From Chloroflexota bacterium (GTDB lineage Bacteria; Chloroflexota; Dehalococcoidia; UBA2979): 46,441 bases of DNA. The notes beneath the pieces were generated by a model. The model did not search any database. It was not told the DNA's origin and worked only from the letters and a program-made list of their open reading frames with translations. The translations under genes were made by a program, and so were the position numbers. This document shows positions 4,715 to 43,732 of the stretch, in pieces (the first letter of the stretch is position 1; the number at the start of each line of letters is the position of its first letter). The stretch covers positions 1 through 46,441 of the forward strand of contig VXMT01000159.1 in NCBI GenBank assembly GCA_009840965.1, written 5' to 3'.

Positions 4715-5740
4715 CTACGCGTCGACCCGCACGAACTTCTGCAGCGCACGCGATCCGCGGTCGATGCCGCGGTAGGTTTCGGCGAGGTCGCCGACGTAGA
4801 TGCTGCCCTGCGAGTCCACCGCGAGGCCGTGTGGGCCGATCACGTGGCCGGCCGCCTGCTGCTCGGCCGGGCAGGGCGGGATCGGCGGCTGCTCCGGGCA
4901 GGTGCAGCCCTCGTCGCCCCAGCCGGCGAGGCGTTCGCCCTGCGGGCTCCAGATGCTGATGCGGTGCAGCAGCTCGGCGACGTAGGCGTTGCCGTCCGGG
5001 CCCCAGGCGAGGTCGTCCGGCAGGTTCACGCCGGACCACTCCTCCTGGTATTCACCGTCGGCGCTGAAGACCTGGATGCGGCGGTTGGAGCGGTCGCAGA
5101 CGTAGACGCGGCCGTCCGGGCCGATGCTGACGGCGTGCGGGTTCGAGAACTGGCCAGGGCCGGAGCCCGGGCTGCCCCAGCCGAAGCGGTACTCGCCGTC
5201 CGCGCTGAAGACGTGGATGCGCGCGTTGCCGTAGCCGTCGCTGACGTAGAGGTCGCCGTTGGCGGCCACGGCCACGCGCGTCGGCTCGTTGAACGGATCG
5301 CCGCCCATGCGGGGCGCGCTCTGGTGCGGGGTGCCGAGGCTGAGCAGCGGCTTCCCGTCCGGCGTGAACTTGCGCACGGTGTGGTCGCCCGTGTCGGCGA
5401 GCCAGACGTTGCCCTCGACATCGACCGTGATTCCGTGCGCCGTCGTGGTCACGTCGTCGCCCCACCAGTCGAGGAAGAAGCCGTCCCGGTCGTAGACCTG
5501 GACCGGGCGCCGCGAGCGCGAGAAGACGAAGACGCGGTCCTCGGCGTCGACGGCGACTCCGGCGACGTCGATCCACGCCCAGCCGCGCGGCCGGCGCGCC
5601 CAGTTGTCGACGACGTAGTAGCTGTGCTCGCCGGAGCCGAGCGGCTCCTCGACGATCCCGCGGGAGCGGGTCGCAGGAGCGCCCCAGCGCCCGTCGCTGT
5701 TCGCCCAGCCGTGGTGTTCGAGCCGCGTCACGTTCACCAT
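4715..5740 (-). CDS. NHL-repeat six-bladed beta-propeller protein (peptidyl-alpha-hydroxyglycine lyase-like fold), paralog 1
   Basis: 341 aa. Repeated NHL-type blades (PHGITVDVEGNVWLADTGDH, PTRVAVAANGDLYVSDGYGN, FSNPHAVSIGPDGRVYVCDRSNRRIQVF). No signal peptide. About two-thirds identical by eye to the 10226-11254 product. Confidence 0.75.
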   Translation of the reverse strand: MVNVTRLEHHGWANSDGRWGAPATRSRGIVEEPLGSGEHSYYVVDNWARRPRGWAWIDVAGVAVDAEDRVFVFSRSRRPVQVYDRDGFFLDWWGDDVTTTAHGITVDVEGNVWLADTGDHTVRKFTPDGKPLLSLGTPHQSAPRMGGDPFNEPTRVAVAANGDLYVSDGYGNARIHVFSADGEYRFGWGSPGSGPGQFSNPHAVSIGPDGRVYVCDRSNRRIQVFSADGEYQEEWSGVNLPDDLAWGPDGNAYVAELLHRISIWSPQGERLAGWGDEGCTCPEQPPIPPCPAEQQAAGHVIGPHGLAVDSQGSIYVGDLAETYRGIDRGSRALQKFVRVDA

Positions 5741-7372: not shown

Positions 7373-8290
7373 ATGAGCTTGAAGCTGGGCATCCACACCG
7401 GGCCGCAGGACCTCTCGATGGAGGAGTTGCTGCGGGTCTGGCGGCGGGCGGACGAGGCCGGGTTCCACTGGGCATCCGTCTGGGACCACTTCTACGCCAA
7501 CCCCCTGAACCTGCGCGAGGACCCCTGCTTCGAGGGCGTCGCCTCGATGGCCGCGCTGGCCGGGGCGACCAGCAACATGCGCGTCGGCTGCCTCGTCTTC
7601 TGCGCGCTGTTCCGCAACCCGAGCCTGCTCGCCAAGGCCGCCGTCACCATCGACCACCTCTCCGGCGGGCGCGCCGAGATCGGCATCGGCGCCGGCTGGT
7701 TCGAGGAGGAGTTCCGCGAGTTCGGTTACGACTTCCCGCCGCTGGGCCAGCGCTTCGAGCAGCTCGAGGAGACGTTGCAGATCGTGCGCTCGCTGTGGCG
7801 CGATCCGGTGACGAACTTCGAAGGCAAGTACTACCGGCTCCCGGGCGCGGTCGGCAGCCCCAAGCCACTCAACCCGAACATGCGCCTCTGGGTCGGCGGC
7901 AACGGCCCGAGACGGACGCCGCGGCTCGCCGCCCAGTACGCCGACGGCTACAACGTCCCCTACCAGCCGCCCGAGGTCATCCGCGAGCGGCTGGACGCGC
8001 TGGAGCAGGCGTGCGAACGCCTGGGCCGCGACCCCGCCGAGATCGGGACCAGCGTCAACCTCCGCTTCCACATGCGCGCCCACGCCGGCGACAGCGATGC
8101 CGACCCGCCGGACAACTACGTGCCGGGCTCGATCACGGGCACGGCGCAGCAGGCGATCGACCGCATTGGCGAGTACGTCGAGACGGGCGTCGGCGGCCTC
8201 AACATCGCCTTCCGGCCGCCGATCAACTGGGACGCCTACGAGGCGTTCATCGAGGACGTGCTGCCGGTCTTCCACACCGCGAGCGCCTGA
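7373..8290 (+). CDS. Luciferase-like monooxygenase (LLM) class oxidoreductase, probably F420-dependent
   Basis: 305 aa. LGIHTGPQD...AGFHWASVWDHFY N-terminus, GGRAEIGIGAGW and LWVGGNGPRRT motifs typical of the LLM TIM-barrel. Confidence 0.8.
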   Translation: MSLKLGIHTGPQDLSMEELLRVWRRADEAGFHWASVWDHFYANPLNLREDPCFEGVASMAALAGATSNMRVGCLVFCALFRNPSLLAKAAVTIDHLSGGRAEIGIGAGWFEEEFREFGYDFPPLGQRFEQLEETLQIVRSLWRDPVTNFEGKYYRLPGAVGSPKPLNPNMRLWVGGNGPRRTPRLAAQYADGYNVPYQPPEVIRERLDALEQACERLGRDPAEIGTSVNLRFHMRAHAGDSDADPPDNYVPGSITGTAQQAIDRIGEYVETGVGGLNIAFRPPINWDAYEAFIEDVLPVFHTASA

Positions 8291-10225: not shown

Positions 10226-11254
10226 TCAATCCACCGGCACGAACTTCTGGACCGCGCGCGCTCCGCGATCGATCCCGCGGTAGGTGTCGGCAAGGTCGCC
10301 GACGTAGATGTTGCCCTCGGAGTCGAGCGTGATGCCGTGCGGGCCGATCACCATCCCCGCGTCCTGGCTCTCCGCCGGGCACTGCGTGAGCGGCAGCGCG
10401 TTCTCCGGGCACTCGCAGCCCTCGTCGCCCCAACCCGCGACGCGGCGGCCGTCCGGGCTCCAGATCGTGATCCGGTGCAGCAGCTCGGCGATGTAGACCG
10501 TGCCGTCCGGGGCGACCACCAGGTCGTCCGGCAGGTGCACGCCGCGCCACTCCTCGAGGTACTCGCCGTCGAGGTTGAAGAGCTGGATGCGGCTGTTCAT
10601 GCGGTCGCAGACGTACACGCGCTGGTTGTGGTCGATGAAGATCGCGTGCGGCGTGCTGAACTGGCCGGGCCCGTCGCCGGGGCTGCCGAAGGTGAACCTG
10701 TGGTCGCCGCCGGCGTCGAAGACGTGGATGTGGCTGTTGCCGTAGCCGTCGCTGACGTAGAGGTCGCCGTTGGCGGCGACCGCCACGCGCGTCGGCCGGT
10801 TGAACGGCACTCCGCCCATGTCCGGCATGTTGATGTGACGCCGCCCGATCGCAAGCAGCAGCTTCCCGTCCGGCGTGCACTTCTTCACGAGGTGGTCGCC
10901 GGTGTCGGCCAGCCAGACATCGCCCGCCGCGTCGATCGTGATGCCGTGCGGGGTGGTGTGCTCGTCGTCGCCCCACCAATCGAGGAAGTCGCCGTCCTTG
11001 TCGTAGATCTGGATCGGGCGGCTCGAGCGGTTGTAGACGAAGAGGTTGTCATCCGCGTCGACGGCCACGCCCGCGACGTCGCCTAGCGCCCAGCCGCGAG
11101 GACGCCGCGCCCAGTTGTCGATCACCCGGTAGCGGTGGGCGCCCTCGCCGAAGACGGTGTCGGGCGTGCGGACCCAGCGGGTGAACGGCTCCGTGAGCTG
11201 GCCGGGCACGGCGGTCGAGCGCTCCCAGCTCGTCTTCTGCACGTCGAGAGTCAC
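10226..11254 (-). CDS. NHL-repeat six-bladed beta-propeller protein, paralog 2
   Basis: 342 aa, collinear with 4715-5740, including the C-terminal GDEGCxCPE...CPAE cysteine motif. Followed 25 nt later by the crotonase gene. Confidence 0.75.
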   Translation of the reverse strand: MTLDVQKTSWERSTAVPGQLTEPFTRWVRTPDTVFGEGAHRYRVIDNWARRPRGWALGDVAGVAVDADDNLFVYNRSSRPIQIYDKDGDFLDWWGDDEHTTPHGITIDAAGDVWLADTGDHLVKKCTPDGKLLLAIGRRHINMPDMGGVPFNRPTRVAVAANGDLYVSDGYGNSHIHVFDAGGDHRFTFGSPGDGPGQFSTPHAIFIDHNQRVYVCDRMNSRIQLFNLDGEYLEEWRGVHLPDDLVVAPDGTVYIAELLHRITIWSPDGRRVAGWGDEGCECPENALPLTQCPAESQDAGMVIGPHGITLDSEGNIYVGDLADTYRGIDRGARAVQKFVPVD

Positions 11255-21184: not shown

Positions 21185-21796
21185 CTACTCCCCGTTGCGC
21201 CGGGGCACCTCGAGCTGCTCCATCACCTGCTCGAAGACCGCGTACTCCTGCGCGCCTACCACGGCGTCGCGCTCGTTGAAGATGAAGGTCGGCACGCCGC
21301 GCACCCCGATCTCGCGGGCGATCGTGATGCGCTCGTCCACCTGCTCCCGGTAGCGCCCCTCGTCCAGCACCGCTCGCAGTTCGTCGCGGTCGAGCCCCTG
21401 CTCTCCGCCGATCTCAAGCAGCGTCTCGAGGTCCCCGATGTCGGCCTCGCCCTCGAAGTGCGCGGCGAAGAGCGCACGGTGCAGGCCCTCGTCGTCGTGG
21501 CCGATCTCCTGCGCGTACTCGGCGGTCTCGAGGGCGAGGTGGGAGTTCGGCGTGAAGCGTCGCCCGCGGCGGAAGGTGATGCCGGCGCGTTCGCCTCGCA
21601 GCTCCAGGTGCGTCGGCGGATCGTCCGGCTTCGTGCGCGGCTCGCGCTCACGGCCCTGGGGCGGAATCGAGGGGTCGAGCAGGTACGGCCACCAGTGCAC
21701 GTCCAGCTCGTACTCCCGCCGCAGCTTCTCGACCTCCACGAGGCCGACGTAGCACCACGGTCAGATGAAGTCGCTGACGATGATGAGTGAGGTCAT
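21185..21796 (-). CDS. Probable selenoprotein: DsbA/FrnE-like thiol-disulfide oxidoreductase with U-P-W-C active site (203 aa if TGA 21761-21763 is read as Sec)
   Basis: The track ORF (21185-21739) lacks the family N-terminus. Extending upstream in frame gives MTSLIIVSDFI-[TGA]-PWCYVGLVEVEKL..., i.e. the family CPWC motif with TGA at the first Cys. An ATG with SD-like GGAAGGCGAGGG lies upstream. The C-terminal GVRGVPTFIFN...GAQ is typical of DsbA-fold proteins. Confidence 0.7.
21729..21747 (-). other. Candidate bacterial SECIS stem-loop
   Basis: mRNA +17 to +35 from the UGA is UCGGCCUC-GUG-GAGGUCGA, an 8-bp stem (one G-U pair) with a GU-containing apical loop about 22 nt after the UGA. Confidence 0.4.
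21761..21763 (-). other. In-frame TGA, candidate selenocysteine codon (residue 12)
   Basis: Plus-strand tca at 21761-21763. Followed by Pro-Trp-Cys codons. Confidence 0.65.
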
Positions 21797-21938
21797 GACG
21801 GCCCTCGCCTTCCGGCCCGCGTCCGCTCACCTCAGTATGACGCCTCGGGATCGCGGCTGCGCGCTCGCCCGGCATCGCAAACGGCGTCGCTGCTACCATC
21901 CACGCCCCACCGCCACGGCCCGAAGGGAGCGAGAGCGC

Positions 21939-22874
21939 ATGAACTTCGGACTGTTCCTGATCGAGTCGCCGCACCGCGCGCACGTCGGGCCCAGTGGACG
22001 CCACGCCGCGCCCGGACAGGGCGCCGCGCTCACCTCGCCCGAGTACCTCGGCGGCCTCGCACGCTTCGCCGAGGAGGTCGGGTTCGACTTCGTCTCGTTC
22101 CCGGAGCACGTGGTCCTGCCCGTGGACTACGAGTCGCGCTACCCGTACCAGCAGTACGAGGGCGGCGACTTCAAGCGCTACCCCTACGACGAGACGGCGT
22201 TCCCGGAGCCGGTCACCGCCCTCACCTTCGTCGCCGCCGTGACCGAGCGGCTGGAGTTGGGCACCTCGGTGCTGATCCTGCCGCAGCGCAACCCGGTGAT
22301 CCTCGCCAAGCAGCTCGCCACCCTCGACGCGCTCTCGCACGGCCGCGTCAGCCTGACGGTCGGCATCGGCTGGCTGCGCGAGGAGTTCGCCGCGATCGGC
22401 GTGCCCTGGGAGCGCCGCGGGCGGCGCGCGGACGAGTACATCCAGGCGCTGCGCAAGCTCTGGCGCGACGAGGTGTCCACCTTCCAGGGCGAGACCGTCT
22501 CCTTCGAGCGTATCCGCTGCCTCCCGAAGCCCGCGCAGCCGGACGGCCCGCCGATCATCGTCGGTGGGCACAGCCTCGGCGCGGCTCGGCGCGCGGGACG
22601 GCTCGGCGACGGCTTCATGCCGCTCGGCCTCGGCGGCTTCGGCGGCGAGGACATCACGCCGCTGCTCGAGGCCTGGCGCGAGGCGGCGGCCGCCGCCGGA
22701 CGCGAGCAGGCGGCGACGGAGCTGCGCATGGGCGCCGCGCCCGACCTCGAGTCGGTGCAGCGCGTCGCCGAGCGCGGCGCGACGCGCATCCACTTCTCCT
22801 TCTCCGCGCCAAGCCTCGACGAGGCGAAGCGCGAGCTGGAGCGGATCGCCAACGAGGTGATCGAGCGCTTCTAG
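21939..22874 (+). CDS. LLM class oxidoreductase, probably F420-dependent
   Basis: Start at ATG 21939 (SD GAAGGGAG upstream), 311 aa. FAEEVGFDFVSFPEHVV, GRVSLTVGIGW and PIIVGGHS motifs. The 5' extension of the track ORF is rejected. Confidence 0.8.
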   Translation: MNFGLFLIESPHRAHVGPSGRHAAPGQGAALTSPEYLGGLARFAEEVGFDFVSFPEHVVLPVDYESRYPYQQYEGGDFKRYPYDETAFPEPVTALTFVAAVTERLELGTSVLILPQRNPVILAKQLATLDALSHGRVSLTVGIGWLREEFAAIGVPWERRGRRADEYIQALRKLWRDEVSTFQGETVSFERIRCLPKPAQPDGPPIIVGGHSLGAARRAGRLGDGFMPLGLGGFGGEDITPLLEAWREAAAAAGREQAATELRMGAAPDLESVQRVAERGATRIHFSFSAPSLDEAKRELERIANEVIERF

Positions 22875-29057: not shown

Positions 29058-30116
29058 ATGCAATTCGGCTTCTGCTACATCCCGGACTACTACCCGGACC
29101 TGCACGGCGAGTTCCGCGACTGGTACGAGCGGCTGCTCTCCGAGTGGGCCTGGGCCGACGAACTCGGCTACGACTCGGTATGGATCGCGGAGCACCGCTA
29201 TCCGGGCTACGCCTTCTCCTCGACACCGGTCGTGTTGCAGGCAATGGCCGATCGCACGAAGCAGATTCGCATCGGGACGGCCGTGGCGCTGATCACCCAG
29301 CGGCACCCGGTGCTGAGCGCCGAGCACTGGGCCGCGGTCGACGTGCTCTCCGGCGGACGGCTCAACTTCGGCATCGGCCGCGGCATCTCGGAGTACGACT
29401 TCGAGACCGTCGGCGTGCCCTCGGAGGAGTCGCGCGAGCGCTTCGAGGAGGCGTGGGAGGTGATCCGCCGGCTCTGGACCGAGGACGAGGTGGTGCACAA
29501 CGGCAAGTACTGGTCGTTCGACGTGCACACCCTGCGGCCGCGCCCGCTGCAGCAGCCGATGCCGCCGATCTACGTCTCCGCGCTGGCGTCGCCGGAGACG
29601 TACCGCTGGGCCGGGCGCAACGGCTACCACCTGCTGGTCGCGCCGTTCCTGCTCGACACCAACGAGCGGCAGCGCGGCTTCCTCGAGATCTACCGCGAGG
29701 AGCTGGCCAACGCCGGGCACGATCCCGCCGCGTTCGAGGTCCTCGGGACGTACCACCTGAGCATCGTCGAGCGGGAGAGCCAGCTCGAGGGGGCGGACCA
29801 GTACTTCTACAACTACCTCAACTTCATCCAGAACACCGGGAAGGAACGAACCGGCGTGAAGGAGGCGCTGGCCGGCGAGGCCAACCGCGCCTACCAGACC
29901 GGCGAGGGCCTGTACAAGGACGTCGAGGCGATGCGCCGTCAGCGCACCGTGATCGGCACCCCGCAGCAGTGCATCGAGCTTATGTCGGAGCTGGCCGAGG
30001 CATGCGGCATCACCGGCTGGTCGTTCGAGATCAGCTACGGCGGCATGCCCCCCGAGATGACCCGGGACCAGATGCAGCTCTTCGCCGAGGAGGTCATCCC
30101 CGTCCTGCGCCCGTAG
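29058..30116 (+). CDS. LLM class flavin-dependent oxidoreductase
   Basis: 352 aa. ADELGYDSVWIAEHRY, GRLNFGIGRG and PPIYVSA motifs. Confidence 0.8.
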   Translation: MQFGFCYIPDYYPDLHGEFRDWYERLLSEWAWADELGYDSVWIAEHRYPGYAFSSTPVVLQAMADRTKQIRIGTAVALITQRHPVLSAEHWAAVDVLSGGRLNFGIGRGISEYDFETVGVPSEESRERFEEAWEVIRRLWTEDEVVHNGKYWSFDVHTLRPRPLQQPMPPIYVSALASPETYRWAGRNGYHLLVAPFLLDTNERQRGFLEIYREELANAGHDPAAFEVLGTYHLSIVERESQLEGADQYFYNYLNFIQNTGKERTGVKEALAGEANRAYQTGEGLYKDVEAMRRQRTVIGTPQQCIELMSELAEACGITGWSFEISYGGMPPEMTRDQMQLFAEEVIPVLRP

Positions 30117-31322: not shown

Positions 31323-32630
31323 CTAGCGCTCCTCGGGGACCACGCCCGCGCGGGTGATCAGGTTCTTGCTGATCGCCTGGAAGGAGTCGGGCTCCAGCTC
31401 GTCCACGTCGGCCTTCCCGGACTCGACGACCTCGCGCTTGAACGGCTCGAAGCTCGGGATCTCGTCGTCGGCGAGGGGCTGCATCCACTGCTTGCGCTCC
31501 ATGGCGGCCTCGATGTACGGGGCCAGCTCCTCCAGCCTGCGCGCCCGGCGCTGGTCCTCCGCCACGGACTTGAACTCCGGCATGACCTCCTCGGAAAAGA
31601 GGCGCAGCGAGTCGCAGATCTCTCCGTGCGTGACGCGGCCGGCCTGGGCGCCGAGCATCACCTGGTCGGCGCCGGCCTCGATCAGCAGGTGGATCGCCTC
31701 GCGCGCCTCCTCGGGCGTGCCGATGCAGCTCGGTTGCCGGCGCGTGTGCTCGGCCTCGAGGCGGTCACGCGCGTCTTCGAAGATGTTCCAGAGGTTCGTG
31801 CGGCCTGGCGTGTGGCGGCCCGCAACGTAGAAGTGCGCGACGCCGGTGCTGAAGAACAGCCGGTTCGGCAGCGCGCGCTCGAAGGCCGCGTCGCTGTCGT
31901 AGTCGAGGACGAGCGGCTCGGCGATCGCGAAGTTGGCGTTGACGAAGTGACCGATCGGGACGCACTCGGTCTTGATCGCCTCGTAGTAGTCGTCGATCCA
32001 GCCGCCGACCTCGCCGGGCGGGAGGAAGGAGAAGCAGAGCACGCCGAGGCCGAGCCGGCCGGCGAGCCTGACCGCCTCGCGGTTGGAGCAGGCCATCCAC
32101 ATCGGCGGGTGCGGCCGCTGCACGGCCTTCGGAACGATGTTGCGGCAGGGCATCGAGAAGTACTCGCCGTCGTAGCCGGGGTAGGGGTCGAGCGCGAGCA
32201 TGTTCGCGGCCTGCTCGGTGGCCTCGAGCCACATCGCGCGCTTGTGCTCGAGCGGGACGCCGTAGCCCTCGAGCTCGCTGCGCGAGGCGGTCTCGCCCGT
32301 CCCGAAGTCGACGCGGCCGCCGGAAACGAGGTCGAGCGTGGCGATCCGCTCGGCGACGCGGGCGGGGTGGTTGTAGTTGGGCGGCATCGCGACGATGCCG
32401 TGGCCGAGCCGGATGCGCTTCGTGTTGCGCGCCGCCGCCGCGAGCACGATCTCGGGTGCGGAGGAGTGCGAGTACTCCTCGAGGAAGTGGTGCTCGACCT
32501 CCCAGACGTGGTCGATGCCGAGCTCGTCGGCGAGCTCGATCTGCTCGATCGTGTTCTGGAAGAGCTGCTGCTCGCTGCCTTCCGTCCAGGGCCGCGGGTG
32601 CTGGATCTCCAGGAAGATGCCGAACTTCAT
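31323..32630 (-). CDS. LLM class flavin-dependent oxidoreductase (long form)
   Basis: 435 aa. MKFGIFLEIQHPRPW..., ADELGIDHVWEVEHHFL and GRVDFGTGE motifs. Confidence 0.8.
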   Translation of the reverse strand: MKFGIFLEIQHPRPWTEGSEQQLFQNTIEQIELADELGIDHVWEVEHHFLEEYSHSSAPEIVLAAAARNTKRIRLGHGIVAMPPNYNHPARVAERIATLDLVSGGRVDFGTGETASRSELEGYGVPLEHKRAMWLEATEQAANMLALDPYPGYDGEYFSMPCRNIVPKAVQRPHPPMWMACSNREAVRLAGRLGLGVLCFSFLPPGEVGGWIDDYYEAIKTECVPIGHFVNANFAIAEPLVLDYDSDAAFERALPNRLFFSTGVAHFYVAGRHTPGRTNLWNIFEDARDRLEAEHTRRQPSCIGTPEEAREAIHLLIEAGADQVMLGAQAGRVTHGEICDSLRLFSEEVMPEFKSVAEDQRRARRLEELAPYIEAAMERKQWMQPLADDEIPSFEPFKREVVESGKADVDELEPDSFQAISKNLITRAGVVPEER

Positions 32631-32678: not shown

Positions 32679-33488
32679 TCAGTTAGCTTCGCCGAGGAAG
32701 TCCTCCGCGGCGTCCTGCGGCACATGGCCGAGCACCTCGGTGCTGTGGCTGTAGTCGCGGAAACGCCAGCGGTTGTTTGAGATCCCGAAGAAGATGTCGA
32801 AGCGCACCTCCTCGGGCGCCTCGATGCTGCGCACGACGAGGTCGGCGACATCGCGATGGCTGACGAAGATCGCCTGGTTCCACGGATCGCCCTCGCGGGG
32901 CCGCCCGTGCGCCGAGCAGGCGCCGATCCGCAGGCAGATGATCGAGAGGTCCGTCGTCCCCACGTACAGTCGCGCCAGATCCTCACCGAACAGCTTGGAC
33001 ACCGCGTAGAGGTTCAACGGTCTCGGCTCGTCGCTCGGGCGCAGCATGCGCCACTCCGAGGGCACGCGATCGTACTCCCCGCGCGTGATCTCGGCGTAGG
33101 GCGACACGCTCTGGTAGCCGCTCATGGTCGCGCCGCTCGACGCGAAGACGACGCGCCGCACCCCCGCCTGCAACGAGGCCTCGAAGACGTTGCGCGTGCC
33201 GGTGATGTTGTGGTGCAGGATCTCGTCCCAGGCAGCCTCCCACATCCCGCGCGGCGAGTTCACCCCGCCGTAGGCGGCGAGGTGGACGACCGTGTCCACG
33301 CCCGCGAAGGCCGGCGCGATCTCCTCGAGGACGGCGATGTCGCCGCGGAAGTCCCGCTCGGGCGGCAGGCCCTCGACGCCGCCGCGCGAGAGCGCGACGA
33401 CCTCGAAGCGCTCTTCGAGGGCGGGGCGAACCGCGCCGCCGACCGCGCCTCCGAGCCCCGTGACCAGCACGCGCCGTCGGTCCGTCAT
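32679..33488 (-). CDS. NAD-dependent epimerase/dehydratase family (extended SDR) protein
   Basis: 269 aa. VLVTGLGGAVGGAV glycine motif and YAVSKLFGE (YxxxK). Confidence 0.75.
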   Translation of the reverse strand: MTDRRRVLVTGLGGAVGGAVRPALEERFEVVALSRGGVEGLPPERDFRGDIAVLEEIAPAFAGVDTVVHLAAYGGVNSPRGMWEAAWDEILHHNITGTRNVFEASLQAGVRRVVFASSGATMSGYQSVSPYAEITRGEYDRVPSEWRMLRPSDEPRPLNLYAVSKLFGEDLARLYVGTTDLSIICLRIGACSAHGRPREGDPWNQAIFVSHRDVADLVVRSIEAPEEVRFDIFFGISNNRWRFRDYSHSTEVLGHVPQDAAEDFLGEAN

Positions 33489-36356: not shown

Positions 36357-38840
36357 ATGAACCGGGTACTCAGCGGGTGGAGTTGGCTGGTCACGGTCCG
36401 GCCGTACGCCACGATCGCCGTCCTCTTCGTGATCACCGTCGTCCTGGCGGCGGGCGCCGGCCGGCGCGCCGAGGTAATCGAGGGCGCGGCCCTGGCGTTC
36501 CTGCCTCCGGGGAACGCGGTCGCGGAGGCGATCGCGGAGATCGGCGAGCGCTTCGAGGAGACGGGCGACGTCCGGGTCGTGACGCTCGTCTTCCGCGGGG
36601 AAGCACTGACGCCGGAGGCGCTCACCCAGGCGGACGCCCTGCTCGACCGCATCATCGGCGACCCTGACGTGGGGGCGCTGTTCGCGCCCGGCGATCCGGT
36701 TGTGGCGCTCAGTCCGCTGCTCGAGGCCGCGCTCCAGGTGGACGGCTTCGCATCGGTCACGCAGGCGGAGATCGACGCCGTTCGCGGCGTCCCGGAGATC
36801 GGGGCCGTGATCGGCGCGCTCACGGGGACCGATGCGGACGGCACGCCGGTCGCGATCGCCACGATCCGCCTGACGGACACCGGGGACGAACGCATCGAGG
36901 AAGCCGAGCGGCGGATCAACGAGCTGGCGGTCGAGGACGAAGGCCCGCTACGCGTGAGCAGCGTCTCGCCCGTGGTGGTCGAGGACGAGTACAAGAAGGC
37001 CACCGAGGAAGGCACGGCGCCCCTGATTGGGCTGGCGCTGCTGCTGATCGCGGTGCTGCTCCTGGTCTTCCTGCGCACGCCCTCCGATCTGCTGCTCACC
37101 CTGCTCGGCCTACTCTTCTCGCTGATCTGGGTCATCGGGGCGGAGGGCTGGCTGGGACCGAACGGGCTGGCGCTGATCGGCCCGCCAAGCTCCCTCACCG
37201 CGCTGGTGCCGATCATCGTGATCAGCCTCACGGTGGACTACGCGATCCAGGCCGTCTCGCACTATCGAGAGCAGCGAAACGCCGGCGAGCCGGTGTTGGC
37301 CGCGGTCCGCCGAGGACTGCAGCACGTCACCGTGCCGCTGGTGCTGGCCGCCGTCACGACGATCGCAAGCCTGCTGGTGAACCTGCTCTCCCCGATCGGC
37401 GTCATGGGCGACTTCGGCATCGTCGCAGGGCTGGGCGTCGGGATGAGCCTGATCGTGATGCTGACGCTGATCCCGGCGGGCCGGCTGATCATCGACCGGC
37501 GGCGCGAGGCGCGGGGCACGTTGCGGGAGCCTCGCCCGGTCGCGAACGCCCTGCCGGGTATCACGAGGTTCGCCGAGCTGCTGGGGACGTCGGTCGCGCG
37601 GCAGCCGGCGCCCTACCTGGTGGTTGTGATCGTCGTGACCATCGGGCTTGGCTTCGCGGCCAGGGATCTCGAGTCGGGGTTCAACATTCGCGACATCCTG
37701 CCCAGCAGCGGGAGCGTGATCGAAGACCTCGACACCCTCGACAGCTCCGTCGGCGGCTCAACGGAGCTGGCCAGCGTCCTCGTGCGGGCGGAGGCGACGG
37801 AAGCCCGCACGCTGCTGAACCTGCACGACCTGCGGACCGCCTTCGACGACCCGGCGCGCCGCCCGGCGGCGGCCGCGGGACCGCTCCAGACATCGTACGA
37901 GTTGCTCGTGCAGGACTGGATCGAGGACAGCGGGGAGCCCGGCGACAAGTACGACCCGGAGCTCGCCGCGCTCTTCCGGGACGCCACCGCGGGAGTGGGC
38001 CTCGATCAGGCGCTGATGCAGGAGTTCCTCGACGGGCTCCAGGCGCGTGATCCCGCCGCCGCGCACGCGCTGGTGGACAACCCCAACGGCGCCGACCTGC
38101 TGCTGGTCCAGTTCCCGACCTTCTCCGGCGACCCCGCCATCACCAGGGAGCTCCAGGAGGACATCGAGGCGCTCTGGTTCGGGGAGGACGGCGCGATCAC
38201 GGCGACATCGGCCAGCATCACCGCGGTCACCGTGACGGACGAGATCACGAGCCGGCAGACCGCGGCGATCAGCACGACCATCGCAGTCGCCCTCAGCATC
38301 CTCGCCCTCTTCTTCTGGGTGACGCAGCGCCAGCCCTTACTGGCGGTGGTCGCGGTGGGGCCGATCGTGCTGGTCCTGATCTGGGTGCTGGGCACGATGG
38401 CGCTGCTGGACATTCCCTACTCGCTGGTCACGTCGATCATCACCGCGCTCTCGATCGGCATCGGGGTGGACTACACGATCCACCTGATCCATCGCTACAA
38501 GGAGGAGTTCGGTCGCGAGCGCAATCCGGAGCGAGCGGCGATCCAGACGCTGAAGACAACGGGCTCCGCGCTCCTCGGTTCCGCCCTCACCACGGCGCTT
38601 GGGCTCGGCGTGCTGGTAGCCTCGCCGGTGCTCGCGTCCCAGCAGTTCGGGATTACCGCGGCGATCACGATCGCCTACTGCCTGATCGTCTCGATGCTGG
38701 TCGTGCCGCCGGTGATGACGGTCTGGGGCGCCTACCAGAACATGCGCCTGCGCTCGATGGTGGACCGCATGGCGGAGGAGCTGGACCTGATGATCGAAGA
38801 CGTGCACCGGCGTCACGAGCAGGAGCAAGCCTCGTCGTAG
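36357..38840 (+). CDS. RND-superfamily MMPL/HAE3-type membrane transporter
   Basis: 827 aa. Two TM bundles (about aa 225-385 and 650-800) are separated by large soluble domains. The repeated motif LSIGIGVDYTIH / SLTVDYAIQ is typical of MMPL/HAE3 (HpnN-like) transporters. Native high-GC composition. Confidence 0.8.
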   Translation: MNRVLSGWSWLVTVRPYATIAVLFVITVVLAAGAGRRAEVIEGAALAFLPPGNAVAEAIAEIGERFEETGDVRVVTLVFRGEALTPEALTQADALLDRIIGDPDVGALFAPGDPVVALSPLLEAALQVDGFASVTQAEIDAVRGVPEIGAVIGALTGTDADGTPVAIATIRLTDTGDERIEEAERRINELAVEDEGPLRVSSVSPVVVEDEYKKATEEGTAPLIGLALLLIAVLLLVFLRTPSDLLLTLLGLLFSLIWVIGAEGWLGPNGLALIGPPSSLTALVPIIVISLTVDYAIQAVSHYREQRNAGEPVLAAVRRGLQHVTVPLVLAAVTTIASLLVNLLSPIGVMGDFGIVAGLGVGMSLIVMLTLIPAGRLIIDRRREARGTLREPRPVANALPGITRFAELLGTSVARQPAPYLVVVIVVTIGLGFAARDLESGFNIRDILPSSGSVIEDLDTLDSSVGGSTELASVLVRAEATEARTLLNLHDLRTAFDDPARRPAAAAGPLQTSYELLVQDWIEDSGEPGDKYDPELAALFRDATAGVGLDQALMQEFLDGLQARDPAAAHALVDNPNGADLLLVQFPTFSGDPAITRELQEDIEALWFGEDGAITATSASITAVTVTDEITSRQTAAISTTIAVALSILALFFWVTQRQPLLAVVAVGPIVLVLIWVLGTMALLDIPYSLVTSIITALSIGIGVDYTIHLIHRYKEEFGRERNPERAAIQTLKTTGSALLGSALTTALGLGVLVASPVLASQQFGITAAITIAYCLIVSMLVVPPVMTVWGAYQNMRLRSMVDRMAEELDLMIEDVHRRHEQEQASS

Positions 38841-38853
38841 GCGCGGCAGTCTG

Positions 38854-39888
38854 CTAGAGGGGCTTTCGAGCCAGGAAGCAGTACAGCGGTGTGAAGATGC
38901 CCGTCTTGCCGCCCGCGACATAGGCATCCGCGGTCCGATCCAGCATTCGGGCAACTTCCGCGGAGCCCTTCGGAAACAGCCGCACGAGTTCGGCCAGCCT
39001 CAGTCCTGTGATGAGCGCTTTGCGGCCCCACGGAAGCATGTGCAAGGTGCCGCCCAATGTCCCATGGCGACTCTCCATGGGTTGGTACCACGGTGTTGAT
39101 GGTCCCGTTGTGGCTCCTCGGTCTATCCCTTCGAGCACGTGGAATCCGGCCGCTTCGAGAGCGTGATCCACCTCCCTGAACGTCGCGATGTCGTTCAGCG
39201 CAATCCCGTGCATGAGGTCCAGCTTGATGGTCCGATGCCGGTCGTCGCTGGGATCGAACTCCTCCGTCAGACACATCTCCTGGCCCCAGAGGAGGGCGCC
39301 GGGCTTCAGCACGCGGAATATCTCCTCGAACGCGCCTTGCTTGTCCGGCGCATGGCACGTCGACTCGATGGCATAACCCCGGTCGAAGGTCTCGTCTCCT
39401 ATGGCGCTCATATCCATGAAGCTGCACGCCTCAAAATCGACCATGTGGTCCAGCCCGGACTCGGCGTTCAACCTCTTCGCCATATCCAGCTGGATCTCGT
39501 TGATGTTGATTCCTGTAACCCGGACACCAGCCTCACGTACGACGCGGCGCATTGGTCCGCCAACCCCACATCCAACATCGACCACCGTCATACCCTGCTG
39601 CAGCTCCAGCTTGGAGATCATCAACCGCTGATGCCGGACTATGGATTGCTCCAGCGTCTCATCAGGCCTGAGGGGTGCGAAGTGCAGGGACTCGCCCCAC
39701 AGGCAGACCATGAACGCGCTGGAAAGCGCGTAGTACTCGTTCGCCGTTTCGGCGTGGTCGGGGGCGCTCGCACCATCACCCCCCGCCACCCCCAGTCCGG
39801 TTCGGTCGTCGAAGTGCTGGATCCGACGCGAGACGTCGGATCGCTGGTAGCCGCGCCTGAGCTCCTTGAGCAGTCTGACTAGCTGCAT
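38854..39888 (-). CDS. SAM-dependent C-methyltransferase of the sterol 24-C-methyltransferase (SMT/ERG6) family
   Basis: SMT-region motifs YYALSSAFMVCLWGESLHFAP, SAM motif VVDVGCGVGGP, YAIESTCHAP and C-terminal PWYQP...GIFTPLYCFLARKP (Sterol_MT_C-like). The start is uncertain: ATG 39888 is preferred and ATG 39984 is possible. Confidence 0.8.
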   Translation of the reverse strand: MQLVRLLKELRRGYQRSDVSRRIQHFDDRTGLGVAGGDGASAPDHAETANEYYALSSAFMVCLWGESLHFAPLRPDETLEQSIVRHQRLMISKLELQQGMTVVDVGCGVGGPMRRVVREAGVRVTGININEIQLDMAKRLNAESGLDHMVDFEACSFMDMSAIGDETFDRGYAIESTCHAPDKQGAFEEIFRVLKPGALLWGQEMCLTEEFDPSDDRHRTIKLDLMHGIALNDIATFREVDHALEAAGFHVLEGIDRGATTGPSTPWYQPMESRHGTLGGTLHMLPWGRKALITGLRLAELVRLFPKGSAEVARMLDRTADAYVAGGKTGIFTPLYCFLARKPL

Positions 39889-40003
39889 GTCGTGGTACTC
39901 GCCTTTGCCTTTAGTCAAGCGTAGCCACACGCCGCGTTCGCGGCCAGCCGCGCCCTGGTGGGCGCGTCCGCCACGAGCCGGCAACCTCAGTCGCGATCGC
40001 GCG

Positions 40004-42028
40004 TCAGACGGGTAGCTCGCGCCGCCGCTCGGCGATGTGGAACTTCAGCTTCTTGCTCACCGAGAGCGACGGGAACGGGTCGATCTTGAGATTGTAGTTC
40101 TTTGGCGACACCTCGATCGTGAAGTGGTGCGCGAGCAGCAGCAGGTTGACCGCCAGCTGCAGCTCCATCCAGCGGTTGCCGAGGCAGGTGTGGGTGCCCA
40201 GCCCGAACGGGGCGTACCCGGGGCTGAGGTGCTCGTTGCGGTCGGGCAGATAGCGGTCGATATCGAACTCCCACGGATCGGGGAACACGCGGTCCATGTA
40301 GTGCGCGGCCGCCTGGGCGATGAACACCCGCGAACCCTGGGGAATCTCGTAGCCCTCCACCACGCACGCATTCATCACGTTCCGCACGGACATCGGAACG
40401 ATCGAGTACATGCGCATGGACTCCATGATGAAGCGGCGCGTGACGTCGACCGACTCCTCCGTGAAGTCCTCGCGTCCGGGATCGCCGCCATCGAACAGGG
40501 CGTCGGCCTCCTCGCGGATCCTGGCGTAGAGATCGGGCTGGGACGCCATCGCGTAGAGCGCGAAGCTCAGCCCATCGCCGAGGTAGACGCTGGCAATCAG
40601 CGGCGCCGAGAGGACGAAGCGCAGGTTCGACTCCGGGAGGAACGCAGGGTCGCTCGAGTGCATGCTGAGCAGGTCGTCCGCGAGATCGCGAGGGCGACCG
40701 GCCCGCTGGGCGGCCGTATGGACACCCTGGACGCGCTGCAGCAGCACCTCGATGCTCTTCGCGCGACGCCGCATCGCCGGGGTCTTGAGCATGAACTTGG
40801 GCATGACGCCCAGGACGTGCGTGGACAGCGCCCGTGTCTTGTACTTGACCAGATCGTCCAGGACGTCCTGCGAATCGACGCTGATCATCAGGGGCGAGAT
40901 CTGGGCGTTGATGAAGTGCCGGCACATAGCCACCGCGGGCATGGTGTCTCCGGCCTCCCAGGTCGCCATGTGTGATCGGATGTAGTCGTAGAGATTCTCC
41001 AGTTGCCCTTCCAGCCTCGCGCGCGAGTACCCCGGCGCCATCGCCTTGCGGAACCGGAAGTGATCGGCGCCGTCCAGCGCGGGCAGGATCCCGGATGCGC
41101 CATAGACCTTCTCGAAGTCCTGGAGGTAGTCCCGGGCGCGCAGGTACATGCGCCCCTGGCGGTGCGCCCAGTAGTTCGTCTCGGGCCCCGCCAGGATGAG
41201 CATGGGCTGCTGGAACGGCGGGTTGACCTGGTACACGGGCCCGTACTGCTCCGCGAGATCCGCGAACAGGGCAGGGAGGTTCCCGTCGCGAAGATGCCGA
41301 TGCAGCGCGAACTTGTGCAGCGGCACCTTCGGGATTGACTTGGTCAGGCCGCGCCGCAGCAACGGGACGTTGATGTTCTGGCTTACCGCCTCGGCGATCG
41401 CCCGGCCGATCAGGTCCATCCGGCAGATCAGCTCGATCCGCTCCTCCGACTCGTCATCGAGCTGGAACATGAAGCGGAAGACATCGCACGTGTCGATGAG
41501 GGCGACAATGATGATATCGCGAGGTGTGGGAATCTCGTTGGTGAAGATCACCTTGCTGATGCGCGTCTTGACGAACTCGGCGGCGGTGCCTTCCCCCTCG
41601 CTGCTGAACATCTCCGTCTGCCAGGCGGTACGAGCCAGCGTCCAGAAGTCGCCTTCGTGATGCTCGAGGATCTTCAGGTCAACCAGACGGTCCAGCGACA
41701 GGTCGATGATCGTCTCTGCCCGGGGAGCGAGCCGCTCGATCCAGTACTGGGCATTCCGCTGCGCCGGTTCGGCGGCGATCTGCTTGAGGACGGGATCCAG
41801 GGCCGGGTCACCCGTCTCCGTCTCGTCGAGCAGGATCAGGGAGTCCATGTCCGTGTCGATACGCGAGATGAGGGAGAGCTCCGCGAGCACGGCGCCGGCA
41901 ACGGCGCAGTTCAGACTCCAGCCGGGTACCTGGTGAAAGTACCCGCTCTCCTCGTTGAGCAGCATCAGGACGAGCTCTTCGGGCAACGTCAACAGTTGCG
42001 TCGCAACAGGATCCCTGGCGAGGGTCAT
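40004..42028 (-). CDS. Fusion protein: N-terminal GPP34/GOLPH3-family domain plus C-terminal cytochrome P450
   Basis: Start at ATG 42028 (SD GGAG 8 nt upstream), 674 aa. GPP34-like LPEELVLMLLNEESGYF...AVAGAVLAELSLISRI...GDPALDPVLKQI. P450 ExxR (ESMRMY) and heme loop FGLGTHTCLG. The track ORF extension to 42904 is antisense to the Rieske gene and is rejected. Confidence 0.8.
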   Translation of the reverse strand: MTLARDPVATQLLTLPEELVLMLLNEESGYFHQVPGWSLNCAVAGAVLAELSLISRIDTDMDSLILLDETETGDPALDPVLKQIAAEPAQRNAQYWIERLAPRAETIIDLSLDRLVDLKILEHHEGDFWTLARTAWQTEMFSSEGEGTAAEFVKTRISKVIFTNEIPTPRDIIIVALIDTCDVFRFMFQLDDESEERIELICRMDLIGRAIAEAVSQNINVPLLRRGLTKSIPKVPLHKFALHRHLRDGNLPALFADLAEQYGPVYQVNPPFQQPMLILAGPETNYWAHRQGRMYLRARDYLQDFEKVYGASGILPALDGADHFRFRKAMAPGYSRARLEGQLENLYDYIRSHMATWEAGDTMPAVAMCRHFINAQISPLMISVDSQDVLDDLVKYKTRALSTHVLGVMPKFMLKTPAMRRRAKSIEVLLQRVQGVHTAAQRAGRPRDLADDLLSMHSSDPAFLPESNLRFVLSAPLIASVYLGDGLSFALYAMASQPDLYARIREEADALFDGGDPGREDFTEESVDVTRRFIMESMRMYSIVPMSVRNVMNACVVEGYEIPQGSRVFIAQAAAHYMDRVFPDPWEFDIDRYLPDRNEHLSPGYAPFGLGTHTCLGNRWMELQLAVNLLLLAHHFTIEVSPKNYNLKIDPFPSLSVSKKLKFHIAERRRELPV

Positions 42029-42193
42029 CGGTCCCGCTCCTAACCCATCACCTTCAAGCGTAGCCACCGAGGTCACGCCCCGCAAGGCGATCCCGTACGG
42101 GTGCGACGGAGGAAATATGTCTCGTATCCTAGAAGGGACACCAGCCGGCCAGGGAGCCGTCGCCCCTCGATTGCGGGTGAGGAGTGGCGAACG
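42029..42193. promoter_or_regulatory. Divergent intergenic region between the P450 fusion and Rieske genes (promoters/operator expected)
   Basis: 165 bp. Contains the 10-bp palindrome CCCGTACGGG (42092-42101) and an AT-richer patch GGAAATATGTCTCGTATCCTAGAA. No specific site can be assigned. Confidence 0.3.
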
Positions 42194-43240
42194 ATGGTAG
42201 CCCGACATGGCGAGCCTGCGATCGTCGCGCTGCCTCCGTTCCCCGAGGGCTGGTACTTCGTCACGAGCCGCAAGGCCCTGCAGAAGGCCGGGCTGATCCA
42301 GACGACCTGGATGGGCGAGAACATCGTCGTCTGGAGCGACGATGAGGGGCGCGCCTGCGTCGCCGAGGCCTTCTGCCCGCACCTGGGCTCCGAACTCGGA
42401 CCGGACGCCGGAGGGCGCGTCTCCGCCGGGCGATTGGTCTGCCCCTTCCACGGCTTCGAGTTCGATACGACGGGCCAGTGCGTCGACACCCCCTACGCGC
42501 CCCCGCCCAGGTCCGCCAGGCTGCGCGTCTTCGAGACACGCGAGATCGCGGGCCTGATCTTCGGCTGGTGGGGAATCGGGGGGCGGGAGCCGCAGTGGGG
42601 CCTGCCCGAGGAGGCGCCGGACCAGACGGGCTGGAGCGAGGTGTACGTCCAGACGCTCCGCTTCCCCGGCCACCCCCAGGAGATCGCGGAGAACTCGGTC
42701 GACCTGGCCCACCTCCGCTACATCCACGGCTACGACAGCGTCAACCGCGTCGAACCGGCCTCGATTGACGGGCACCACATGGTGAGCCGGTTTGACTTCA
42801 CGAGTCGCCGCAAGGTCGCCAGAGTGGCGACGCTCACCTTCGAGATCTCCGCCGACACCGACATCTACGGGTTGGGCTACTCGTTCGTGAGCATCCGGGA
42901 GCACACGATCGGCATGGATATGCGCCTGTGGATCCTGGCGACGCCCGTCGACGGCGAGCTCGTCGACATGACGCTGGCCTCGCAGGTGCGGGAGATCCGC
43001 AACCCGAAGCGACTGTTCGTTGGCCTGGGACTCCTCCCGACGAGGCTGCGCGCGCCGCTCATGAACAGGTTCATGGCGTCCCGGCAGCGCCAGGACGTGC
43101 TCGACGACGTCGTGATCTGGGGGCGCAAGAAGTACGTCTCGCCTCCGCGCCTCAATCGTTCCGACGGCGAGATCATGGCCTACCGGGCCTACTGCGCCCA
43201 GTTCTACCCCGACCCGAGCGACTGCAGCGCCACGTCCTGA
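42194..43240 (+). CDS. Rieske [2Fe-2S] non-heme-iron oxygenase (oxygenase alpha-subunit type, KshA/Neverland-like class)
   Basis: ATG 42194 with SD GAGGAG upstream, 348 aa. Rieske ligands CPHLG...CPFHG. Mononuclear-iron motif ENSVDLAHLRYIH (D-x2-H-x4-H). Confidence 0.85.
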   Translation: MVARHGEPAIVALPPFPEGWYFVTSRKALQKAGLIQTTWMGENIVVWSDDEGRACVAEAFCPHLGSELGPDAGGRVSAGRLVCPFHGFEFDTTGQCVDTPYAPPPRSARLRVFETREIAGLIFGWWGIGGREPQWGLPEEAPDQTGWSEVYVQTLRFPGHPQEIAENSVDLAHLRYIHGYDSVNRVEPASIDGHHMVSRFDFTSRRKVARVATLTFEISADTDIYGLGYSFVSIREHTIGMDMRLWILATPVDGELVDMTLASQVREIRNPKRLFVGLGLLPTRLRAPLMNRFMASRQRQDVLDDVVIWGRKKYVSPPRLNRSDGEIMAYRAYCAQFYPDPSDCSATS

Positions 43241-43282
43241 GGCTCGCCACCGGCTGGCTGCGGATCCGCGCGGCCTCGCGCG

Positions 43283-43732
43283 CTACTCGCTGAGTTCGTC
43301 GCGCACGGCGCCCTGGCCCGGGTGCATCCACTCACTCTCGTAGCGCCGGTGCGCGAACTTCCACTCGCCGTCCACCTTGCGCAGGTGGTCGAAGTAGCGG
43401 CCCGCGAGGCGAAAGAGCCCGTCCGACATCCCCCACGCCGCGATGTAGCACTCGACCCGCGCCTCGTCCGGCGCGCCCTCGACGGCCTCGATGGCGAGGC
43501 TGTTCGTCCAGTGGCGGTAGTCGTCGCCGGTCACCTCGAAGAGGCGGCGCATGTAGGCTTCGAGCCCCTCGCGCCCTTCATGGCGGAACGCCCAGTCCGG
43601 ACCGATCAGTTCGAGCACGCCGTCCTCGGTGAACATCGCCGCCGTCCGCTCGGCCTCGCGGCGGTCGTAGGCGAGGTTCTGGCGGGCGAAGAGGTCACGG
43701 ATCGCCTCGCGGTCCTCGAGCGTCAGCGCCAT
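43283..43732 (-). CDS. NTF2-like / SnoaL-like fold protein
   Basis: 149 aa. REAIRDLFARQNLAYDRREAERTAAMFTEDGVLE N-terminus, typical of SnoaL_4/NTF2-like (ketosteroid-isomerase fold) proteins. Native high GC. Confidence 0.6.
   Translation of the reverse strand: MALTLEDREAIRDLFARQNLAYDRREAERTAAMFTEDGVLELIGPDWAFRHEGREGLEAYMRRLFEVTGDDYRHWTNSLAIEAVEGAPDEARVECYIAAWGMSDGLFRLAGRYFDHLRKVDGEWKFAHRRYESEWMHPGQGAVRDELSE

Follow-up and report, generated by a model that had tools for sequence, protein, structure and literature searches.

Gene content of the locus

We analysed a 46,441-nucleotide stretch of DNA from a Chloroflexota bacterium of the Dehalococcoidia (contig VXMT01000159.1; hereafter the window), in which a first-pass annotation, made from the sequence alone, had singled out neighbouring genes that together could oxidise and methylate a sterol-like lipid and perhaps export it. 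The open reading frame (ORF) list and Pfam scans of 36.3–43.8 kb yielded five intact genes. An MMPL/RND transporter of the HAE3 type (36357-38840, + strand; 827 aa; Pfam MMPL, 3.1e-47) converges on a sterol methyltransferase (SMT)-family gene that belongs to 'clade 2' of ERG6/SMT (38854-39888, - strand; 344 aa; Sterol_MT_C, 1.4e-18, with Methyltransf_11), and the stop codons at 38840 and 38854 are indeed 13 nt apart. Upstream of the SMT on the same strand lies a cytochrome P450 gene (40004-42028, - strand; 674 aa). The first-pass annotation placed this gene correctly but missed that its product is a fusion, with an N-terminal GPP34 (GOLPH3-like) domain (~41350-42028; 1.3e-29) joined to the P450 domain (~40004-41300; p450, 1.8e-40). 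Transcribed divergently from it, again as annotated, is a Rieske non-haem-iron oxygenase of the KshA/Neverland type (42194-43240, + strand; 348 aa; Rieske, 1.5e-18; KshA_C, 4.8e-25).

We took the starts of the P450 and Rieske genes from the ENA annotation of an identical contig. The long ORF 40004-42904 runs beyond the P450 gene, and 42194 is a more likely Rieske start than 42101. The SMT and GPP34-P450 genes probably form one operon. The 165-bp intergenic region between the divergent P450 and Rieske genes (42029-42193) is presumed, from gene orientation, to hold a promoter region shared by both; a promoter and terminator scan returned no sigma-70 consensus match there, a result that is uninformative in DNA of this composition (window G+C ~70%).

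The SMT, P450 and Rieske genes stay linked across phyla

To collect relatives, we scanned one genome per species with the SMT and kept the best 80 of 541 encoding stretches (67–83% identity); the counts that follow come from tblastn of the window proteins against these 80 loci and from all-against-all clustering of their ORFs. Nearly all of the loci are in uncultured metagenome-assembled genomes (MAGs) from about ten phyla: Chloroflexota, Gemmatimonadota, Latescibacterota, Nitrospirota, Nitrospinota, Actinomycetota, Binatota, Verrucomicrobiota, Bacteroidota and Pseudomonadota, with Dehalococcoidia, Binatia, Opitutales, Rhodothermales and Gammaproteobacteria among the lineages named. The nearest relatives of the window SMT are SB066x bins; the Poribacteria members of this series are recorded as sponge-associated Entoporibacteria. 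The IRC, RHO, COS and APA bins are sponge MAGs too.

In 77 of the 80 loci, GPP34-P450 and the SMT are at most 10 kb apart; in 64 of those 77 the distance is at most 400 bp, and in 45 the P450 gene sits immediately upstream in the same orientation. KshA-type Rieske orthologues (56–90% identity) occur in about 65 of the 80. Gene order and orientation vary among lineages, and because linkage survives this rearrangement, we regard the three genes as a functional unit. Chance co-location is excluded by the synteny, the same genes standing together in most of the 80 loci. Nor did the comparison tie the genes to an unrelated pathway, an outcome against which the first-pass annotation had cautioned: SMT, P450 and Rieske are conserved together, and nine loci abut sterol synthesis. 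In the related loci, the module is not accompanied by the SnoaL, DegT, DUF1214, lyase and major facilitator superfamily (MFS) genes that flank it in the window.

At about 37 of the 80 loci the module also includes an Amino_oxidase-family flavoprotein of ~460 aa, 69–81% identical across phyla (for example L002:6344-7828, L035:5582-7432 and L058:8054-9442). In L002, the closest relative of the window, its gene has the Rieske gene on one side and the P450 gene on the other. Among solved structures, the flavoprotein is nearest to LkcE and 2b9w, the latter of which we take to be a fatty-acid isomerase.

The module abuts sterol synthesis in Nitrospirota

In nine of the 80 loci (eight Nitrospirota, one unclassified), the module adjoins a complete cluster for de novo sterol synthesis, made up of a fused squalene monooxygenase–oxidosqualene cyclase (SMO-OSC), CYP51, ERG24, SdmA/SdmB and a second SMT of canonical type. 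Locus L051, from a Nitrospira MAG, reads SdmB, SdmA, ERG24, CYP51, SMO-OSC fusion, canonical SMT, window-SMT orthologue, GPP34-P450. A single stretch of L035 carries ERG24, SdmA, SdmB, a canonical SMT and the flavoprotein, together with an outer-membrane protein, the KshA-type Rieske gene, the window-SMT orthologue and GPP34-P450. The SMO-OSC fusion (L051:4360-8022) is 77–92% identical across MAGs named Nitrospira, Acidimicrobiia, Alphaproteobacteria and Rhodospirillales, so the de novo sterol genes also look horizontally shared. Among the best 120 matches of a homologue search with the OSC domain, those that carry a name came from these four groups, with none named Chloroflexi.

Bacterial SMTs from sponge metagenomes methylate sterols, and their genes occur in clusters with OSC, CYP51, ERG24 and SdmAB (PMC10070321). 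ERG24-CYP51-LSS clusters were found in 115 of 537 Ircinia MAGs spanning ten phyla, Dehalococcoidia included, with purifying selection, horizontal transfer and SMT enrichment (PMC9531527); horizontal transfer and enrichment in sponge microbiomes figure in both studies. Set against these clusters, the SMT orthologue stands beside de novo genes in Nitrospirota, whereas the window holds the module without them. The first-pass annotation had suggested that the substrate might be exogenous. It need not be: since sponge-symbiotic Dehalococcoidia carry sterol clusters (PMC9531527), the window organism may make sterols from genes elsewhere in its genome.

Term searches found no 'P450', 'Rieske' or 'transporter' in the text and supplements of PMC10070321, and no 'Rieske' or 'GPP34' in PMC9531527. 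Neither paper gives GPP34-P450, a KshA-type Rieske, the flavoprotein or transporters as SMT partners, and our literature search returned no publication joining the work on bacterial SMTs with that on GPP34-P450.

The methyltransferase belongs to a discrete SMT clade

The assignment of the methyltransferase to the SMT family stands. Its translation contains every hallmark motif listed at first pass (CLWGESLHFAP, VVDVGCGVGGP, YAIESTCHAP, TPWYQPMESR and CFLARKPL), Sterol_MT_C (PF08498) matches residues 282-343 with 67.2 bits against a cut-off of 21.7, and identity to Saccharomyces cerevisiae ERG6 is 33.4% over 335 aa (E 4e-53). Identity to the canonical bacterial SMT that adjoins OSC is 43%. Only 233 matches at E <= 1e-30 were found among 1.84 billion library representatives; beyond the protein's own clade, the next full-length SMT neighbours are 54%, then 47%, then at most 43% identical, which marks the clade as discrete.

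Across 81 clade members, Region II (VVDVGCGVGGP) and Region III (YAIESTCHAP) are intact and nearly or fully invariant, and the C-terminal motif is essentially invariant. Region I has the clade consensus F-M-V-W-G-W-G-E-S-L-H-F versus F-Y-E-Y-G-W-G-S-S-F-H-F in ERG6, and Region IV reads Q-E-M versus Y-E-W. Region I lines the pocket for the sterol side chain, and in yeast its Tyr81 governs successive methylation (Nes laboratory literature). From these motifs, a changed substrate or regiochemistry of the clade is plausible.

The ERG6 query was validated against a published value: the SMT orthologue of L035 is 35.632% identical to it, reproducing the 35.63% reported for IMG 2682229270 ('SMT 2 of 2'). 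L035 is the Nitrospira coral-reef contig of Brown et al. 2023 (PMC10070321). The window SMT is ~71% identical to this protein ('Nitrospira sp., coral reef 2 of 2'), and that paper describes the orthologue as cloned and assayed with desmosterol and 24-methylenecholesterol (PMC10070321). Two more SMTs of that study, 'A. aerophoba JGIcombinedJ30088_10000835 2 of 2' and 'T. swinhoei Chromatiales 2 of 2', may belong to the clade, judged by an identity to ERG6 of 34–35%.

In one cluster of relatives, a 477-aa protein (P0060) joins the C-terminal fragment of a KshA_C-type protein in frame to an entire SMT, which may reflect either a genuine fusion of Rieske and SMT genes or an error of gene calling. 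Extra SMT paralogues, one or two per locus, occur at L015:1443-3531, L050:3425-4336 and L054:3896-4906, ~40% identical to the window SMT and ~50% to the canonical type, bringing the number of SMT genes to as many as three in 10 kb.

GPP34-P450 is a two-domain oxygenase whose PI4P pocket is not conserved

The GPP34 domain of the P450 is a clear PF05719 member (residues 19-220; 104 bits where 29.1 are required, with 199 of the 201 positions of the profile covered), and the two-domain architecture recurs in all of the best 120 of 2086 homologues. The haem-ligand loop FGLGTHTCLG is intact and the ExxR motif is present. In the I helix, L-I-A-S-V-Y-L-G-D aligns to the A-G-x-E-T-T segment without its acid-alcohol pair. 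An AlphaFold2 (AF2) model (pLDDT 75.6, pTM 0.72) searched with Foldseek matched only generic P450 folds, best CYP184A1 and Methylococcus capsulatus CYP51 at ~20% identity, and these gave no hint of the substrate. An assignment as CYP51 was rejected. The nearest NCBIfam models are terpene oxygenases, none of which is matched at equivalog level.

We aligned the GPP34 family HMM to human GOLPH3, cross-checking the N-terminal part against 3kn1, and compared what we take to be the phosphatidylinositol 4-phosphate (PI4P) pocket residues of the human protein, W81, R90, R171 and R174. The basic pocket is not preserved: W81 is kept, R90 is replaced by V or A, and the segment bearing R171 and R174 has no counterpart, in a part of the alignment where confidence is low. 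As read from the translation, the protein opens with the first helix of GPP34 and not with a signal peptide. In the AF2 model, residues 121-131 form a beta-hairpin; a hairpin that inserts into membranes is a feature of the GOLPH3 fold.

The long form that fuses GPP34 to a P450 (GPP34_L) has been described as monophyletic, present in many symbiont phyla and exclusive to sponge symbionts, and was proposed to be a secreted PI4P-binding effector that blocks phagosome maturation (PMC11706023). The window protein has the same two-domain architecture; it differs in the operon linkage of its gene to those for an SMT and a steroid-type Rieske oxygenase, and in its PI4P pocket, which is not conserved. 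The same study reports rare GPP34+Rieske fusions (PMC11706023), which tie GPP34 to the other oxygenase of the module. Because the pocket is not kept, the model contains the hairpin and GPP34 is fused to that second oxygenase as well, we infer that the domain may serve to dock a bacterial P450 that would otherwise be soluble peripherally on the membrane. The genomic context implies that GPP34_L is a sterol-pathway enzyme.

A second, divergent type of GPP34-P450, 42–46% identical to the window protein, accompanies the SMT in Nitrospirota/Nitrospinota-type loci (L014, L019, L023, L036, L042, L044, L048, L054 and L067). Most of these loci also carry an outer-membrane barrel, and several a tetratricopeptide-repeat (TPR) gene.

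The Rieske oxygenase is of the KshA type

The Rieske domain scores 67 bits and KshA_C 89.3 bits against a cut-off of 23.3. Over its full length the protein matches the 3-ketosteroid 9alpha-hydroxylase KshA (PDB 4qdc; 4.7e-24), with both metal sites in register. The C-x-H...C-x-x-H residues of CPHLG...CPFHG pair with CRHMG...CPFHD of 4qdc, and at the D-x-x-H-x4-H iron site ENSVDLAHLRYIH pairs with DNVVDMAHFFYIH. The window protein thus shares with KshA (PDB 4qdc, 2zyl) the Rieske [2Fe-2S] and KshA_C domains and aligned iron ligands. It differs in its ~25–30% identity (judged by eye), in having no KshB or catabolic context, and in being paired with a methyltransferase, not with KstD. Neither a KshB reductase nor any gene recognisable as catabolic turned up in the window or in the conserved neighbour clusters, not all of which are annotated. 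Another relative of KshA is the animal cholesterol 7-desaturase Neverland/DAF-36.

The analogy with SdmA drawn in the first-pass annotation did not hold up: the protein reaches 34.6 bits against a cut-off of 600 on NF052579, and its catalytic domain is KshA_C, not VanA_C. SdmA, which acts with SdmB in C-4 demethylation, is likewise a Rieske protein acting on sterols and occurs in the same Nitrospirota loci. The true SdmA of L035 and L051 has VanA_C, whereas the window Rieske has KshA_C and no SdmB partner; the two are therefore different enzymes. In L051 (Nitrospira sp. bin75), the Rieske gene between the two SMT genes has shrunk to a 116-aa remnant (L051:9605-9955), from which it follows that the module can lose this gene.

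Transport partners change with the cell envelope

Besides the Pfam MMPL model, the transporter matches Sterol-sensing (2.1e-13) and Patched (3.9e-11). These matches reflect general RND homology, and we do not count them as evidence of sterol binding. In NCBIfam the protein stays below the cut-offs of the HAE3 subfamily (188.6 bits against 351.9) and MmpL3 (32.9 against 1400), so that only the general Pfam MMPL model is passed; none of the NCBIfam equivalogs matched any module protein. Matches in the PDB are weak (MmpL4/5, Patched, HpnN). HpnN and BstA, which are genetically linked to polycyclic triterpenoid pathways, carry lipid out of the inner membrane. The window protein shares their RND/MMPL superfamily but is an orthologue of neither the hopanoid transporter HpnN (112.7 bits against 751.85) nor the sterol transporter BstA (28 against 1400).

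An MMPL orthologue (65–81% identity) adjoins the SMT in 24 of the 25 Chloroflexota loci and in no other phylum. Unlike the HpnN and BstA systems, the module is served in other phyla by an AcrB-type tripartite pump: AcrB, a membrane-fusion protein (MFP) and an outer-membrane factor (TolC, OEP) partner it in 31 loci from Latescibacterota, Gemmatimonadota, Opitutales, Rhodothermales, one gammaproteobacterium and several unclassified MAGs. Nitrospirota/Nitrospinota-type loci have an outer-membrane beta-barrel instead, sometimes with a TPR protein. An RND-type transporter thus recurs beside the module in two non-orthologous forms, MMPL and AcrB, and the transport partner changes with the cell envelope. 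Since non-orthologous transporters have been recruited, lipid movement across the envelope is likely part of the function, which gives substance to the earlier suggestion of export.

The module is shared between phyla

SMT identity between phyla averages 77%, equal to that within Chloroflexota, and reaches 98%; of the 69 classified loci, 14 have their closest SMT in a different phylum. The flavoprotein shows a similar pattern (81% identity between phyla). Within the window, third-position G+C (GC3) is 0.77 for the SMT, the lowest value of any gene there, and 0.89 for the P450, compared with 0.947 +/- 0.017 for 32 flanking genes, while the Rieske and MMPL genes are native-like at 0.93. The codon composition of the SMT accordingly looks foreign to its surroundings.

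A proposed sterol-tailoring module and its alternatives

Taken together, these results favour reading the region as the Chloroflexota version of a horizontally shared sterol-tailoring module associated with sponge symbionts, to which we assign a probability of roughly 0.62. The family assignments and the synteny lend support to the original idea of a co-localised sterol-lipid tailoring set. In such a module, the substrate would be a sterol in the cytoplasmic membrane, drawn either from a sterol cluster elsewhere in the genome or from the host. The P450, kept at the membrane surface by its GPP34 domain, would oxidise or desaturate this sterol, and the Rieske oxygenase would do likewise. The SMT would then place a methyl group from S-adenosylmethionine (SAM) on the resulting olefin; oxidation or desaturation first and methylation second is a reasonable order because an SMT needs an olefin. 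The adjoining MMPL/RND pump would finally move the product out of the cytoplasmic membrane to the cell surface or the host.

Several observations weigh against this reading. As the first-pass annotation had noted, the window has no genes for making sterols or triterpenoids: tblastn with the L051 and L035 proteins found no OSC or squalene-hopene cyclase (SHC), squalene monooxygenase, CYP51, ERG24 or SdmAB in its 46 kb. The window also contains no ferredoxin or reductase partner and no copy of the flavoprotein. The canonical aromatic motif of Region I is broken throughout the SMT clade, with Met in place of Tyr81 in 81 of 81 sequences, and the window copy (F-M-V-C-L-W-G-E-S-L-H-F) adds two changes, W to C and G to L, that are unique among the 81; judged from its motif, this copy may be functionally shifted or relaxed, and given these departures its substrate and even its activity are uncertain. 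Four of the 24 bacterial SMTs assayed were inactive (PMC10070321). The solved P450 nearest to ours, CYP184A1, has a fatty acid (oleic acid) bound. Finally, pairwise-distance correlations are only moderate for the three genes (0.3–0.4) and lie between 0.1 and 0.45 overall, too weak for us to claim transfer as a single block.

Part of this evidence would fit a module acting on some lipid other than a sterol, such as a hopanoid or other triterpenoid, a carotenoid-like polyene or an unsaturated fatty acyl chain, with the methyltransferase a diverged relative of SMTs. The clade-wide changes in Regions I and IV, the oleic acid in CYP184A1 and the terpene-oxygenase likeness of the P450, the flavoprotein's resemblance to LkcE and the presumed fatty-acid isomerase 2b9w, and the failure of some assayed bacterial SMTs to act on sterols (PMC10070321) all point that way. 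Against it stand the intact Sterol_MT_C domain and Regions II and III, the full-length match of the Rieske protein to the steroid-specific KshA_C family, and neighbours that are OSC, CYP51, ERG24 and SdmAB; hopanoid or carotenoid genes were not noticed beside the module, although no dedicated search for them was made. We consider this alternative unlikely. Still less probable, in our estimate, is that GPP34-P450 is a secreted effector that binds host PI4P and blocks phagosome maturation, with the SMT, Rieske and transporter genes as unrelated neighbours. The domain is a true PF05719 member, the long form is confined to sponge symbionts, and eukaryotic GOLPH3 binds PI4P (PMC11706023). Yet the profile alignment shows a single pocket residue retained out of four, the N-terminus is no signal peptide, a haem P450 needs cytoplasmic redox partners, and the gene adjoins the SMT in 64 of 77 loci and sterol-synthesis genes in Nitrospirota. 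The study that proposed the effector role examined neither the pocket residues nor the SMT neighbours, and mentions neither sterols nor methyltransferases (PMC11706023).

The KshA_C similarity of the Rieske protein could also suggest a locus for steroid uptake and catabolism, in which the KshA-like and P450 enzymes would break down host sterols for their carbon by ring opening or through the side chain, and the window is rich in genes for enoyl-CoA hydratase, CoA-transferase, short-chain dehydrogenases/reductases (SDRs) and luciferase-like monooxygenases. Those flanking genes, however, are not kept with the module in the 80 loci, and among the neighbours conserved in at least 8 loci, not every cluster of which is annotated, we recognised no kstD, hsa or fad. 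A SAM-dependent C-methyltransferase is moreover anabolic, and in Nitrospirota the module extends a biosynthetic cluster. We therefore hold a catabolic role to be very improbable and retain the sterol-tailoring module as the preferred reading.

A bolder version of that reading is speculative, and we would not expect it to hold in full: the set of GPP34-P450, clade-2 SMT and KshA-type Rieske oxygenase, often with the flavoprotein, might be a mobile symbiosis cassette that takes sterols made by the host or by the bacterium itself and turns them into unconventional ones, alkylated or desaturated, for export, with GPP34_L a sterol enzyme and not a PI4P effector. If so, symbionts would directly supply the unusual sterols of sponges, such as those with 26-methyl or other non-C-24 alkylations. 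Alkylated steranes such as 24-isopropylcholestane and 26-methylstigmastane serve as the oldest chemical evidence for animals, and the debate over them hinges on whether sponge bacteria make or modify such sterols. Each component of the module was already known by itself; what appears to be new is that they are kept together, with transporters that match the envelope and with an additional flavoprotein. One of two bacterial SMT clades thus travels with two oxygenases and a lipid pump across about ten symbiont phyla, and the locus offers a concrete three- or four-gene pathway for an SMT so far assayed alone. It also offers a different function for GPP34-P450, recently highlighted as a hallmark of sponge symbiosis, and sterol remodelling and export may belong to symbiont life inside sponges.

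Other features of the window

The fifth intact gene encodes a SnoaL_4/NTF2-fold protein (43283-43732, - strand; 149 aa; SnoaL_4, 5.4e-25). It follows the Rieske gene, as the first-pass annotation had it, but its implied membership of the set fails: the related loci contain only five weak matches (~30% identity), ~8 kb from the SMT, and we rejected it as a module partner. The gene probably lies outside the module. ARAGORN called an 82-nt tRNA-Arg(CCG) inside the Rieske coding sequence (42352-42433); Rfam gives no tRNA there at gathering score, and the call is most likely a false positive.

Among the other products of the window are transporters (a peptide ABC transporter and MFS proteins), enzymes (molybdopterin dehydrogenase subunits, SDRs, luciferase-like monooxygenases, a CoA-transferase and an enoyl-CoA hydratase) and NHL-repeat proteins. 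None of the luciferase-like paralogues, SDRs, CoA-transferase or enoyl-CoA hydratase genes near the module is kept with it in related loci. One SDR (32679-33488), three genes upstream of the MMPL gene, has Epimerase and 3Beta_HSD Pfam matches and a weak likeness to SdmB/HpnA; it was not noticed beside the module in other lineages, although it was never used as a query against the related loci. Four luciferase-like monooxygenase paralogues fall within 25 kb (7373-8290, 21765-22874, 29058-30116 and 31323-32630). The window also encodes two NHL-repeat beta-propeller proteins (4715-5740 and 10226-11254); eukaryote-like repeat proteins such as these are often enriched in sponge symbionts.

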